From assembly GCA_037383845.1 (NCBI GenBank), contig JARRON010000012.1, forward strand, positions 752 to 64,751: a stretch of 64,000 nucleotides of DNA, in the 5' to 3' direction. The translations under genes and the position numbers were made by a program. Below the pieces are notes generated by a model. That model was not told the DNA's origin. It saw only the letters and a list, made by a program, of their open reading frames with translations, and made no database searches. Position 1 is the first letter of the stretch. Each line of letters opens with the position of its first letter. Shown in pieces: positions 52,934-64,000 of the stretch. Source of the DNA: Gammaproteobacteria bacterium (GTDB taxonomy: Bacteria > Pseudomonadota > Gammaproteobacteria > Steroidobacterales > XN24).

Positions 52934-55261
<2,328 letters not shown>

Positions 55262-60698: not shown

Positions 60699-60979
60699 GC
60701 CGCTCACCGACTGTTGTTTCGGGAGACGCTCTCCCGGATGCGCGGGCAGCGGCCGCCGGTCGACCGTGCGCGCTCCTTGTCCCCGGTGGTCTCCGGGCGA
60801 TCCCGCCATGGCCTTCCGCCCGGCTTCGCGGCGCGCATCCCGTCGACATCCGCCGCGTTGGACAGGTCCCGGTGGCCCCGCGATCCCGCTCGCTGCCCGC
60901 CGGAGGACGACGCAGGCTCGGCACCTCCGGCCCGGACGTCATACACTGCGGTTTCGGGCCGGTTCACCCGGCGGGGGGA

Positions 60980-63079
60980 ATGATGGTACCTGAAGAGACC
61001 GGGCCGTCGGCGAAGCCAGCCACGGCCTCGTCGCGAAAATACAGGGCTTTTATCAGCTACAGCCACACCGACCGGAGCTGGGGCGAGTGGCTCCACCGGG
61101 CACTGGAGACCTACCGGGTGCCGAAGCGGCTGGTCGGGCGCGCCACGAACATGGGTACGGTGCCGCGGCGCATCGCGCCGGTGTTCCGGGACCGGGAGGA
61201 ACTGCCTACCGCCACCAGCCTGGGGGCGGTCATTAACGAGGCCCTTCAGGACTCCGCCACGCTGGTGGTCATCTGTTCTCCCGCCGCGGCCCGTTCCCGG
61301 TGGGTCAACGAGGAAATTCTCACCTACAAGCGCCTTGGCCGCGGGGACCGGATTCTCGCGCTCATCGTCGCCGGCGAGCCCAACTCGTCGGACAAGGCCG
61401 ACGACGGAACGGAGGAGTGTTTCCCGGAGGCGCTGCGGTACAGGACCGGCCCGGACGGCGAGCTGACCTCGGCGCGGGAGGAGCCGGTGGCGGCAGACCT
61501 GCGCCCGGGGGGCGACGGCAAGGCCGCGGCCAAGCTCAAGCTGGTGGCAGGCATCCTGGGCGTGGGCTACGACGAGCTGCGGCAGCGGGAGCAGCAGCGC
61601 CGATTCCGCCGGCTGGTCGCCGTCACGGCTGCCTCCGTGGCCGGCGTGCTGATTGCCGCGGCGCTGACGGTGGACGCAATGCTGGCCCGCCAGGAAGCGG
61701 AAGCCGAGCGCGCCCGGGCCGAGGCCGCCCTGGACGAGTCCGAGGCGGTCACGGACTTCCTCACCTCCATGCTGGGGGCCGCCAGCCCGGCGGAGCAGGG
61801 CCGGGATGTGACCGTGCGGGAGGTTCTGGACCAGGCGGCCAATCGCCTCGAGGTGCAGTTCGCAGAGCAGCCCCTGCTGGAAGCACGCATGCTGCATACC
61901 CTGGCCAGCACCTACGGCGCCCTGGGGTACTTTGACGTCGCAAAGGACCAGTTCGAAAAGGCCTACGGCATCCGGTCCGAGCGCCTGGGTCCCGTCGATC
62001 CCGAGACCCTGGAGTCGAGACGGGATCTCGCCTCGACGCTGGTTGAGCTGGAGCAACGGGATGCTGCCACCGCGGAGTTGAGAGAGATGCTGGCGCTGGA
62101 GCGGCAGGTCTTCGGGCCGGATCATCCCGGTACGCTGAAGACCCAGGCCAGCCTGGGCGTGGCCCTCGTGCGCGCGGACGAGCTGGTGGAGGCCGAAGCG
62201 CTGCTGCAGGACGGCCTCGAGCGGGCCGAAACCGCGCTCGGCCCGGATTCGCCAGAGACCCTCATGTTGATGAACGGCCTTTCCAGTATCCACTGGCAGC
62301 GGCGCGAGCTCGAGCCGATGATGGCCCTGAACACGCGGATCCTGGAAGCGACCCGCGGGCGCTACGGCGATCTCCATCCGGATACGGTGAGCGCCATCCA
62401 CAATCTTGCCACCGCCTATTTCCTGGCCAGCGACCGGCTGATGTATTCCGGCGAAGCCATAGGCAACACGCCGGCGCTGCAGCGTGCCGCCGAGCTGTAT
62501 GCGGAGGCGTCCGCGAAGGGGAAGGCCCTCTACGGCGAGGATCATCCTTCGCCCTACATCAGCCAGTTCATGTACGGCGTCTGCCGGCTGAATATCGGTG
62601 AGTACGACGCCGCGGAACAGGCGTTCCATGAGGTGGTCCGTGCCCGGGAGCGGCTGTCAGGTCCCGACTCGCAGGGCGTTTTCTCCCCCAAGGGCCAGCT
62701 GGCGCGCCTGTACATCCGCCAGAAACGCTTCGAGGAGGCGCGGGACCTGATGGCCGGGGTCGTCGAGGGGGCGGTCCGGGTCCTCGGCGAGGAGCACACG
62801 GCTACCCAGGTCTACCGGTATCGGCTCGGCATCGCGCTGATGCACCTGGAAGCCTATGAGGAAGCCGAGTCCGTCCTTCTCAACGCCCACGGGCATCTGC
62901 TCGAAGCCCGGGGTGCGGATCACGACTGGACCCAGTGGTCCGCCAAGGTGCTCAGCGAGCTCTACGAACGCCTGGACCGGCCCGAGGAAGCGCGCCAGTG
63001 GATGGACCGCGTGGACCCGGAGTGGAACGCGGCCATGGAAGAGGTCCGCGCCCAGAACACGGCGCCGTTCTACGACTGA
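60980..63079 (+). CDS. TIR domain - single TM helix - TPR repeat protein
   Basis: ATG at 60980 inside ORF 60872..63079. TIR region: YRAFISYSHTDRSWGEWLHRALE..., LVVICSPAAARSRWVNEEI. Arg-rich stop-transfer RQREQQRRFRRL, then TM helix VAVTAASVAGVLIAAALTV. After that, about 430 aa of TPR_10/12-like repeats (LHTLASTYGALGYFDVA, GPDHPGTLKTQASLG, GPDSPETL, HPDTVSAIHNLA...). Confidence 0.85.
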   Translation: MMVPEETGPSAKPATASSRKYRAFISYSHTDRSWGEWLHRALETYRVPKRLVGRATNMGTVPRRIAPVFRDREELPTATSLGAVINEALQDSATLVVICSPAAARSRWVNEEILTYKRLGRGDRILALIVAGEPNSSDKADDGTEECFPEALRYRTGPDGELTSAREEPVAADLRPGGDGKAAAKLKLVAGILGVGYDELRQREQQRRFRRLVAVTAASVAGVLIAAALTVDAMLARQEAEAERARAEAALDESEAVTDFLTSMLGAASPAEQGRDVTVREVLDQAANRLEVQFAEQPLLEARMLHTLASTYGALGYFDVAKDQFEKAYGIRSERLGPVDPETLESRRDLASTLVELEQRDAATAELREMLALERQVFGPDHPGTLKTQASLGVALVRADELVEAEALLQDGLERAETALGPDSPETLMLMNGLSSIHWQRRELEPMMALNTRILEATRGRYGDLHPDTVSAIHNLATAYFLASDRLMYSGEAIGNTPALQRAAELYAEASAKGKALYGEDHPSPYISQFMYGVCRLNIGEYDAAEQAFHEVVRARERLSGPDSQGVFSPKGQLARLYIRQKRFEEARDLMAGVVEGAVRVLGEEHTATQVYRYRLGIALMHLEAYEEAESVLLNAHGHLLEARGADHDWTQWSAKVLSELYERLDRPEEARQWMDRVDPEWNAAMEEVRAQNTAPFYD

Positions 63080-63200: not shown

Positions 63201-64000
63201 ATGAACAAAACGTTCGGATCCGGCGCCTGGCAGCAGGTGCTGCCGGTCGCTATGTGCCTGCTCACGATCCCGCTTCTGCAGGCCCAGGCGGACGAGCCCG
63301 GCCAGAGCCAGGCGGACATCGCCAAGAAGCTGGCCAACCCCATCGCGTCTCTTGTCAGCGTGCCGTTCCAGGCCAATTACGACGACAACTTCGGCCCGCG
63401 TGACGAAGGGTCGCTCTGGAGACTCAACATCCAGCCCGTCATCCCGTTCTCCATCGGCGAAGACTGGAACCTGATTTCCCGAACCATTCTGCCGGTCGTC
63501 GACCAGGACGGGTTCCCAACCCCGGGCTACCACGAATTCGGACTGAGCGACACGGTGCAGAGCGTGTTCTTCTCGCCGAAGGCGGAGACCGACAGCGGGT
63601 GGATCTGGGGTGCGGGGCCGGTGTTCCTGATCCCGACTGCCACCGATGAGTTCCTCGGCACCGAGAAGTGGGGCATCGGGCCCACGGCGGTGGCGCTCAA
63701 GCAGTCCGGCCCCTGGACCTACGGCGGGCTGGCCAACCACATCGAGTCCTTCGCCGGCGCAGGTGACAGGGCGGACGTGAGCGCAACCTTCCTGCAGCCC
63801 TTCCTGACGTACATTCTTCCCAGCCAGACCACCATCGCACTGAACACCGAGTCCACCTATGACTGGGAAGCCGAGCAGTGGTCGATTCCCCTCAACCTGA
63901 CGGCACTGCAGATGGTGAATCTGGGTGGCCAGCTCGCCCAGGTAGGCGCCGGTGTCCGCTACTGGGCCGATTCGCCTGACTCGGGCCCCGAGGGCTGGGG
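63201..64000 (+). CDS. outer-membrane beta-barrel protein (MetA-pathway/'transporter' OMP family), 5' part only
   Basis: Absent from the ORF track because it runs off the right edge. ATG at 63201 after GAAGGAAG. My translation is MNKTFGSGAWQQVLPVAMCLLTIPLLQAQA/DEP...LANPIASLVSVPFQANYD...LNIQPVIPF...GLSDTVQSVFFSP...GAGPVFLIPTAT...FLQPFLTY. Confidence 0.7.
   Translation, partial: MNKTFGSGAWQQVLPVAMCLLTIPLLQAQADEPGQSQADIAKKLANPIASLVSVPFQANYDDNFGPRDEGSLWRLNIQPVIPFSIGEDWNLISRTILPVVDQDGFPTPGYHEFGLSDTVQSVFFSPKAETDSGWIWGAGPVFLIPTATDEFLGTEKWGIGPTAVALKQSGPWTYGGLANHIESFAGAGDRADVSATFLQPFLTYILPSQTTIALNTESTYDWEAEQWSIPLNLTALQMVNLGGQLAQVGAGVRYWADSPDSGPEGW

Follow-up and report, generated by a model that had tools for sequence, protein, structure and literature searches.

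To our knowledge, the characterised bacterial TIR systems (Thoeris, SPARTA, TIR-STING, the TIR effectors of CBASS and Pycsar, Avs and the NLR-like TIRs) all sense cytoplasmic cues. In Thoeris, the described ThsB proteins are soluble and cytoplasmic, and phage cues inside the cell activate them. Thoeris types VII and VIII use SLATT and TPR-bearing proteins as effectors that respond to cyclic ADP-ribose (cADPR), with type VII combining a TIR protein with the SLATT effector ThsH and type VIII combining a TIR protein with the TPR-bearing ThsI (bioRxiv 10.64898/2025.12.03.692087). TIR and TPR domains also meet in cytoplasmic defence systems, such as E. coli TIR-II and B. cereus BcTir/BcTpr (bioRxiv 10.1101/2023.05.26.542521), and according to a survey from 2024 transmembrane (TM) and leucine-rich repeat (LRR) features seem to be absent from bacterial TIR systems (PMC11350192). 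Here we analyse a gene in a stretch of 64,000 nucleotides (hereafter the window) of contig JARRON010000012.1 from a gammaproteobacterium, encoding a protein of 699 aa with an N-terminal TIR domain, a single TM helix and a C-terminal TPR array (TIR-TM-TPR). Our best reading, which we hold to be moderately probable, is that this protein acts as an outside-in TIR enzymatic receptor; an initial annotation, made from the sequence alone, had inferred a comparable role in outside-in signalling or as a suicide sensor.

The open reading frame (ORF) lies where the initial annotation had placed it, and the motifs quoted there are all present in the translation (FISYSHTD at aa 24-31, SRWVNEEI at aa 106-113 and RQREQQRRFRRL at aa 200-211). 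The product is 100% identical to the NCBI protein P0001, labelled 'MAG: toll/interleukin-1 receptor domain-containing protein [Gammaproteobacteria bacterium]', where MAG stands for metagenome-assembled genome, and the choice of start codon agrees with P0001 and with the lengths of homologs. The hidden Markov model (HMM) searches for TIR_2 and TPR families proposed in the initial annotation matched both: in Pfam, TIR_2 was found at aa 24-132 (E = 1.6e-11, 45.2 bits against a cutoff of 28), ThsB_TIR with E = 1.4e-7 (32.3 bits against 21.2), TPR_12 with E = 1.4e-40 in eight stretches and TPR_10 with E = 8e-35 in six stretches. No kinase, NTPase, NB-ARC, SIR2, SAVED or CBASS domain was detected in the 699-aa protein with Pfam, NCBIfam and PADLOC. 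The NCBIfam model FxSxx_TPR matched partially and in the TPR part only (aa 220-484, 143 bits against a cutoff of 300), and that of Thoeris ThcB4 reached 18.8 bits against a cutoff of 220. Like TIR-II, BcTir/BcTpr and the TIR-NB-ARC-TPR proteins of the STAND/FxSxx type, the window protein combines a TIR domain with TPR_10/12-type repeats. In contrast to these proteins, which are soluble and often carry an ATPase, it has no NB-ARC or AAA domain, and a TM helix is placed between the TIR and TPR parts.

By profile HMM, by fold and by its glutamate, the N-terminal domain is a member of the TIR superfamily. For aa 1-245, an AlphaFold2 (AF2) model computed from an alignment of 15 sequences has a mean predicted local distance difference test score (pLDDT) of 86.4 and shows the beta-alpha TIR fold over aa 20-193, with a single uninterrupted helix beginning at aa 197. 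The top 50 matches listed by Foldseek against the PDB are all TIR-domain structures, 23 of them with E <= 1e-3, and include SPARTA TIR-APAZ, RPP1, RUN1, L6, AbTir, MyD88, MAL, TLR1/2/15 and ThsB, as well as the E100A mutant of RUN1 with NAD (PDB entry 7s2z). A PDB sequence search with the TIR region gave marginal matches (E ~1.5), which were used for residue alignment only. In this HMMER alignment ..ARSRWVNEEIL.. is paired with ..ARSRWCLDELV.. of RUN1 and ..ADSKWCLMELA.. of L6, so that Glu112 falls on the catalytic Glu of RUN1 (WCLDEL) and L6 (WCLMEL). Glu112 is invariant in the three alignments considered (A1, A3 and A4), in agreement with its initial designation as a candidate catalytic residue. 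From this similarity the TIR domain is predicted to be enzymatically competent, as an NADase or a cyclase.

The TIR domain is followed by one membrane-grade segment only (aa 212-235), with a Kyte-Doolittle value of 2.27 at a threshold of 1.6, and the hydropathy scan gave no N-terminal hydrophobic signal segment, as had been stated for the signal peptide. Six Arg residues lie within 15 residues on the N-terminal flank of the helix, and the C-terminal 465 aa have a net charge of -32. A hydrophobic segment is present at the equivalent place, right after the TIR module, in 106 of the 122 representatives, and a motif related to the juxtamembrane TDFLTSMLGAASPAEQGRDVTVREVLDQAANRL is kept across the main TIR-TM-TPR family in a 25-sequence alignment. 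On the basis of hydropathy, the charge rule and analogy, we predict a type-II (N-in, C-out) single-pass inner-membrane protein; the topology logic of the initial annotation (one hydrophobic helix after an Arg-rich segment, read by the positive-inside rule) is upheld.

The part behind the membrane segment measures 464 aa, of which the TPR solenoid takes up ~395 aa; the ~430-aa array given initially was close to these values, if not exact. The full-length AF2 model (pLDDT 83.1) has low confidence only over the TM segment and the termini. In this model one continuous helix (aa 197-266) runs through and past the membrane segment, and an 18-helix TPR solenoid extends up to aa 692, most of its 10-residue blocks having an average pLDDT of ~85-97.

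The same architecture is widespread. The family is defined by a Y-R-A-F-I-S-Y-S-H...S-R-W-V-N-E-E-I...E-P-x-A-A-D-x-R module of ~200 aa followed by one TM helix and a repeat array, all of which are present in the window protein. With the full-length query 2,897 relatives were found, of which the top 120 carry TIR_2 and TPR, except for two kinases and one shorter partial record. These TIR_2 and TPR relatives are mostly ~730 aa long and 35-46% identical, and come from Woeseiaceae and other gammaproteobacterial MAGs. In the 25-sequence alignment the TIR domain and linker (aa 20-211) are almost frozen, with dozens of invariant columns that include W108, N110, E112 and the EP-AAD-R and Arg-rich motifs, and the ectodomain is variable in sequence and repeat number. 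When searched by itself, the 200-aa TIR module matches 13,693 representative clusters (defined at 50% identity), 3,841 of them at E <= 1e-30, and the best 150 of these matches share 57-80% identity over the full module in proteins of 208-1,373 aa. TIR_2 was found in all 50 sampled representatives, ~30 of which continue into WD40 propellers and the rest into TPRs. These WD40-fused proteins are a second, even larger class of the same design; among P0125-P0268, a TIR-TM head with WD40 beta-propellers occurs in ~60% of the sample, in proteins of ~1,000-1,370 aa.

When genomes were scanned, one for each GTDB species, at least 583 loci with the TIR-TM module were found, among them loci in Woeseiaceae, Steroidobacteraceae, Halieaceae, Rhodanobacteraceae, Microbulbifer, Kineobactrum, Thioalkalivibrio, Phenylobacterium and Sphingomonadales. 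The search for the same architecture proposed in the initial annotation, with its 13,693 clusters and these loci, refutes a sporadic fusion. Annotation of the TIR-TM-repeat family is largely limited to 'TIR domain-containing protein'. Tandem or multiple paralogous TIR-TM-TPR genes are seen in some genomes (L023, L075, L076, L077, L082 and L083); in Rhodanobacteraceae two copies are located 0.6-5 kb apart, and one MAG has at least three. The gene is not phage- or plasmid-borne, as judged by searches of IMG/VR viral contigs, where none of 39 pattern matches is a relative, and of plasmids, which gave nine distant matches only, the best of them without annotation.

The ectodomain of the window protein is shared with Ser/Thr kinases. 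When searched on its own, its top matches are seven proteins of its own subfamily at 72-79% identity, six of which are TIR-headed; P0008, the shorter one (a 591-aa record from a 1.9-kb contig), has no TIR match in Pfam. Six full-length subfamily members are intact at 681-698 aa, and members come from different samples. After the subfamily, the best ectodomain matches are Pkinase proteins. Residues 230-699 align with aa 348-817 of P0010, a Ser/Thr kinase of Lentisalinibacter salinarum and likewise from the Woeseiaceae, with 69% identity, 82% positives and no gaps. The similarity sets in where the TM helix ends and extends over the juxtamembrane motif; a second kinase, P0009, behaves in the same manner. 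P0270 is 33% identical over 95% of the query, and among 63 more distant ectodomain relatives ~18 have a Pkinase domain and one has a TIR domain. No Pkinase match was obtained in the window protein with Pfam, and the kinase head of P0010 has no BLASTP match in the window. Thus, compared with kinase-TM-TPR receptors such as P0010 and P0270, the window protein has a homologous post-TM module, the same TM position and a basic flank; unlike Hanks-type kinases, it lacks a kinase domain, and its cytoplasmic head is the TIR of the TIR-TM-TPR/WD40 family.

In the kinases among these ectodomain relatives exactly one TM helix is present; it carries a basic N-flank and is located between the kinase and TPR parts. 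As the kinase head depends on ATP it must be cytoplasmic, which places the TPR part outside. The TIR head of the window protein has a median identity of 63% to all 80 genomic loci, in contrast to 25% for its ectodomain when compared with those of 67 ordinary TIR-TM-TPR loci, the pattern to be expected if the output stays fixed and the sensor varies. Judged from the alignments, the simplest history would be the exchange of the kinase head in a kinase-TM-TPR receptor for a TIR head from the TIR-TM-repeat family, the two lineages being joined inside the TM helix. The initial annotation had suggested such a replacement from the resemblance of the post-TM segment to the juxtamembrane-TPR module of kinases. 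Both points find support in the gapless identity to P0010, the near-identical motif in this kinase, and the position of kinases as the best ectodomain relatives beyond the subfamily. This supports a division in which the TPR array may serve as an interchangeable input module and the TIR domain as the output module.

Both kinase genes that share the ectodomain (L003 8356-12454 and L085 2-4106) overlap an upstream gene of ~550 aa by 8 nt, which encodes a HisKA-HATPase-REC-HTH_AraC protein in L003 and an unannotated 552-aa partial protein in L085. This arrangement suggests a circuit of a kinase and a two-component hybrid; the HisKA-HATPase-REC-AraC gene is missing at the TIR locus. The L. salinarum kinase locus adjoins integrase, transposase and RelE/antitoxin genes. 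KatG is encoded ~6 kb from both the TIR gene (window 52934-55189, minus strand) and the L. salinarum kinase gene (L003 18291-20567), which may reflect residual synteny or coincidence, the genes in between being different.

Genes next to the wider family point to a function of the TIR head in nucleotide signalling. For this analysis six-frame ORFs from 80 genomic loci were clustered, 58 of which have at least 3 kb on both flanks, and 48 of these 58 have at least one recurring neighbour. The most frequent is a SLOG/SLATT-like protein of ~600 aa, present at 22 of the 58 well-flanked loci and at 28 of the 80 overall. Its gene is usually immediately upstream on the same strand, and sometimes divergent or downstream; the protein combines a conserved GHR...AEGAD...WDG...GGT domain at its N-terminus with two 2-TM regions. 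Among 20 members, Pfam reports SLATT_3 in 10 (best 1.7e-5), DUF4231 in seven (best 2.8e-7) and YAcAr SLOG in three, and a comparison of the partner profile with the PDB gave nothing meaningful. The TPR-S protein (~600-700 aa, Pfam TPR-S E = 2.4e-11) is found near the TIR gene in Phenylobacterium-type loci, in total at nine of the 58 well-flanked loci. SLATT and TPR-S were reportedly defined by Burroughs et al. in 2015 (NAR). By eye, the TPR-S neighbour may have a nucleotide-cyclase-like C-terminus and a SLOG-like middle part, neither of which was reported by Pfam. The initial annotation had asked for conserved neighbours, and these recurring partners answer to that in the wider family, though none of them is present at the locus studied here. 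This linkage is the strongest indirect evidence that the TIR head of the family may be a generator of a nucleotide signal, by analogy with Thoeris VII/VIII, whose logic these neighbourhoods resemble.

Other neighbours recur in subsets of the family. At six loci (L006, L013, L014, L020, L028 and L057, ~5.2-12.2 kb of each) the genes for an ~800-aa secreted protein, the ~600-aa SLOG/SLATT-like protein and the TIR-TM-TPR protein form a conserved array on one strand, with gaps that are very short or with overlapping genes, and these three genes are probably an operon. The ~800-aa secreted protein occurs at 14 loci. At 20 loci (including L018, L025, L030, L033, L035, L038, L039, L045, L048, L050-L052, L054, L058 and L062) a gene for a secreted protein of ~1,000 aa (750-1,560) with Big_2 Ig-like domains is located 40-240 nt downstream of the TIR-TM-TPR gene; its product is a possible extracellular ligand or co-receptor. 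In L065, L067, L068, L069 and L081, from Phenylobacterium and other Alphaproteobacteria, the gene of a ~380-aa PEP-CTERM protein ends 7-16 nt before the TIR gene. In Halieaceae, Microbulbifer and Kineobactrum, a ~620-aa membrane protein with TrkA_N and RyR domains takes the place of the SLATT-like neighbour. The TrkA_N-RyR gene ends 7-8 nt before the TIR gene or overlaps it in L011, L027 and L040, and in L034 a copy lies ~3.3 kb upstream on the opposite strand.

At the locus in the window, by comparison, none of these partners was detected. Six of them were sought (SLOG/SLATT-like, TPR-S, TrkA-RyR, Big_2 secreted, 800-aa secreted and PEP-CTERM), without any tblastn match in the window, in the MAG contig L001, in the contig of the 78% identical ortholog (L002) and in L003; profile HMMs for five of the six (not PEP-CTERM) also found none in the window, L001, L002 and L003 at E <= 1. 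Similarly, gene calls, tblastn and profile HMMs bear out that no ThsA-, CBASS- or STAND-type partner lies beside the gene, as the initial annotation had stated. Like Thoeris ThsB, the window protein matches TIR_2 and ThsB_TIR above the Pfam cutoffs and has a catalytic-type Glu, and its wider family has SLOG/SLATT-like or TPR-S neighbours. Unlike ThsB, its TIR domain continues into a TM helix and a large array of TPRs that is predicted to be extracytoplasmic, and no effector is linked to it. Because no effector gene is adjacent, this is not a Thoeris system as defined. In its mode of action the protein would resemble a ThsB coupled to the ectodomain of a receptor kinase. Coordinates of the features discussed are collected in Table 1.

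Table 1. Features of the TIR-TM-TPR gene and its surroundings, in window coordinates (cellular locations are predictions).
Feature	Position	Strand	Basis
Whole gene, TIR-TM-TPR protein, 699 aa	60980..63079	+	ATG at 60980, stop codon included; ORF list and translation
Purine-rich stretch GGCGGGGGGA, putative ribosome-binding site	60970..60979	+	Directly 5' of the ATG; read from the sequence, weak evidence
TIR domain, aa 20-193, cytoplasmic	61037..61558	+	Pfam core aa 24-132; conserved beta-hairpin and alphaE helix extend to aa 193
Glu112 codon, motif W108-V-N-E-E112-I, candidate catalytic glutamate	61313..61315	+	HMMER alignment to the Glu of RUN1/L6; invariant
Start of Arg-rich juxtamembrane helix, aa 197-211 (YDELRQREQQRRFRR), cytoplasmic	61568..61612	+	6 K/R in 15 residues; R203, R207 and R211 invariant
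Single TM helix, aa 212-235	61613..61684	+	Sole Kyte-Doolittle peak >1.6; putative point of recombination with the kinase lineage
Stalk helix and juxtamembrane motif (..TDFLTSMLGAASPAEQGRDVTVREVLDQAANRL..), aa 236-293, periplasmic	61685..61858	+	Helix to aa 266 (AF2); motif near-identical in kinase P0010
TPR solenoid, aa 298-692, extracytoplasmic	61871..63055	+	~18 helices, ~9 TPR_10/TPR_12-type repeats; Pfam and AF2

The DNA has a G+C content of 67-70% (0.685 in the gene), of which long antisense ORFs are a usual by-product. No promoter-like site was found, and the sole terminator-like match falls within the gene. An antisense ORF (60704-62629, minus strand) was rejected, being without homolog support and not called in the public record, as were an overlapping ORF on the plus strand (61300-61935) and others, which are high-G+C artefacts without support from homologs or gene calls. 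The window end is 99.9% identical to the 27.9-kb contig L001, which adds 4.6 kb downstream. Upstream of the TIR-TM-TPR gene (plus strand) the order is KatG (minus), BCCT (plus), OpuAC (plus), a trypsin-like protease (plus) and SDR/DUF2867 (minus), and downstream a signal-peptide protein of 261-278 aa (plus) is followed by MFS (minus) and a TPR protein (minus). The downstream gene starts at 63201 (63201-64000 in the window, plus strand, reaching 13058 in L001) and encodes ~278 aa with a signal peptide (MNKTFGSGAWQQVLPVAMCLLTIPLLQAQA/DEP) and the motif LANPIASLVSVPFQ.

This gene had been proposed to encode an outer-membrane barrel. Its placement, 121 nt downstream on the same strand, is as described, but its barrel nature has no support from Pfam, which gave no match with the protein. 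Contrary to the idea of a conserved neighbour, it is missing beside both the 78% ortholog (L002) and the gene of P0007 (L084), and was therefore rejected as a functional partner. In L002 the upstream genes are syntenic and the downstream position is taken by DUF6982 on the opposite strand, and the gene of P0007 is placed between a DUF1499-like fragment and SBF/ArsR genes. No neighbour is conserved within the subfamily when the loci of the window, L002 and P0007 are compared.

The gene is evolving under purifying selection. For its full length, the ratio of nonsynonymous to synonymous substitution rates (dN/dS) relative to the 78% ortholog is 0.18; the TIR part alone has 0.12 and the ectodomain 0.17 (dS ~0.75), similar to the 0.08-0.15 of flanking housekeeping genes. 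Low values in both parts argue for an old, selected resident, rather than a recent insertion or a decaying remnant.

On the basis of these features, we propose the following course of events for an outside-in receptor. The acidic TPR solenoid of ~460 aa would act as the sensor in the periplasm, where the binding of an extracytoplasmic ligand or a perturbation of the envelope would alter the oligomeric state of the ectodomain or stalk. The continuous helix (aa 197-266) would span the membrane, relay this change and hold the TIR domain against the inner face. TIR domains brought together in this way would self-associate and cleave NAD+, yielding either a messenger derived from ADP-ribose (ADPR) for an effector encoded elsewhere, or a depletion of NAD+ that arrests growth. 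The protein may thus serve in anti-phage or other envelope surveillance.

Several observations weigh against this proposal. A conserved Glu is no proof of catalysis; the topology is based on hydropathy, the charge rule and analogy; AF2 confidence is low over the TM helix in the full-length model; and similar TPR_10/12 arrays are also present in cytoplasmic NB-ARC proteins. The SLATT and SLOG matches of the family neighbours are all below the Pfam gathering scores, and PADLOC gives weak TIR matches for the protein, with no system assigned. The gene is not part of a defence island, its neighbours being KatG, BCCT, OpuAC, the trypsin-like protease and SDR. Moreover, an effector-type partner was not found within 61 kb upstream and 4.6 kb downstream, nor in L002 and at the P0007 locus, and a messenger-receiver pair is consequently not demonstrated for this subfamily. 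This last point, together with Foldseek scores that are similar for the non-catalytic TIRs of MyD88, MAL and TLR1/2, would also suit a scaffold-type TIR, i.e., a non-enzymatic platform that recruits a cytoplasmic partner upon engagement of the ectodomain, as in TLR/MyD88, and a conserved binding partner could equally account for the very high conservation of the whole TIR surface. However, thousands of relatives keep the catalytic-type Glu and the W-x-x-E-E motif without exception, the family neighbours are of nucleotide-sensor/effector types (SLOG/SLATT-like, TPR-S) and not TIR adaptors, and there is no second TIR gene nearby, and we regard a scaffold as unlikely. That the gene is an orphaned, now functionless remnant of a Thoeris-like module that lost its effector is very improbable: every partner of the wider family is indeed missing at the locus, but the dN/dS of 0.12-0.17 in both domains (dS ~0.75), at the level of the neighbouring housekeeping genes, indicates that selection has kept the gene since the two genomes diverged, and six full-length subfamily members are intact.

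Two further alternatives concern the direction in which the protein works. In one, the hydrophobic segment merely anchors the protein, or the topology is not N-in/C-out, and the TPR part reads an intracellular cue like the STAND/Avs-like TPR sensors. A 24-residue segment with a Kyte-Doolittle value of 2.27 is a standard spanning helix, however, and one span places the two domains on opposite sides, with a basic N-flank and an acidic C-terminal domain. The TM segment is also at the same position in the 106 of 122 relatives and in the kinases that share the ectodomain, and adjacent genes in the wider family encode secreted proteins with a signal peptide or PEP-CTERM, fitting an external binding partner. 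Such a tethered sensor therefore seems quite unlikely to us, even though similar TPR_10/12 arrays occur in cytoplasmic NB-ARC/STAND proteins, FxSxx_TPR matches partially and the full-length AF2 model is of low confidence over the helix. In the other, the TPR part is a periplasmic scaffold for envelope or exopolysaccharide assembly, modulated from the inside by the TIR domain according to NAD+ or nucleotide status. Periplasmic TPR proteins are commonly assembly scaffolds, the neighbours of relatives include PEP-CTERM and large Big_2 surface proteins, and the local genes relate to stress and osmoprotection, not defence. Against this, the same ectodomain is found on a Ser/Thr kinase whose gene overlaps that of a hybrid histidine kinase/response regulator/AraC protein, which is a signalling context, and the recurrent SLOG/SLATT-like and TPR-S partners point to the TIR domain as a signal generator, so that a structural role also appears rather improbable.

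When the outside-in receptor is compared with Toll-like receptors (TLRs) and IL-1 receptors, the outline is similar: a repeat sensor outside, one TM helix and a juxtamembrane cytoplasmic TIR domain, the fold of which matches TLR1/2/15. TIR domains of TLRs are scaffolds. In contrast to TLRs, the polarity is reversed (an N-terminal TIR and predicted type-II topology), the sensor consists of TPRs and not of LRR or Ig domains (Pfam finds no LRR), and the window TIR retains the Glu that is typical of NADase TIRs. The likeness is one of design only, and nothing indicates that the architectures share a common descent. By the tests of membership applied, the protein falls outside the Hanks kinases, the STAND/FxSxx proteins and the TLRs. 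No description of a bacterial TIR-TM-TPR/WD40 receptor was found in the literature consulted, an earlier in-silico mention being possible in Burroughs et al. 2015.

A broader and more tentative interpretation, which we consider possible but rather doubtful, is that these proteins make up a class of 'Toll-like' receptors in bacteria that is very large and so far undescribed. In such a class, TPR or WD40 sensors of surface or periplasmic cues would switch on a TIR messenger enzyme, read by SLOG-SLATT pores or TPR-S where these are linked, and the subfamily of the window would illustrate an exchange of sensors between TIR proteins and kinases within the TM helix. Cues may include phage adsorption or ejection, envelope damage, or a signal from kin or competitors. 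If true, this would be the first TIR immunity or signalling to be triggered outside the bacterial cytoplasm. A catalytic-type TIR linked through one TM helix to a large sensor of repeats, predicted to be external, is the opposite of what the survey stated (PMC11350192). The presence of a sensor with 69% identity on both a TIR domain and a kinase amounts to a natural experiment with one input and two outputs. With it, one can test how activation works in the TIR proteins and in their kinase-TM-TPR counterparts, which are abundant and likewise uncharacterised. Should outside-in signalling through NAD+-derived molecules prove true, the parallel between bacterial and animal innate immunity would extend to receptor topology.

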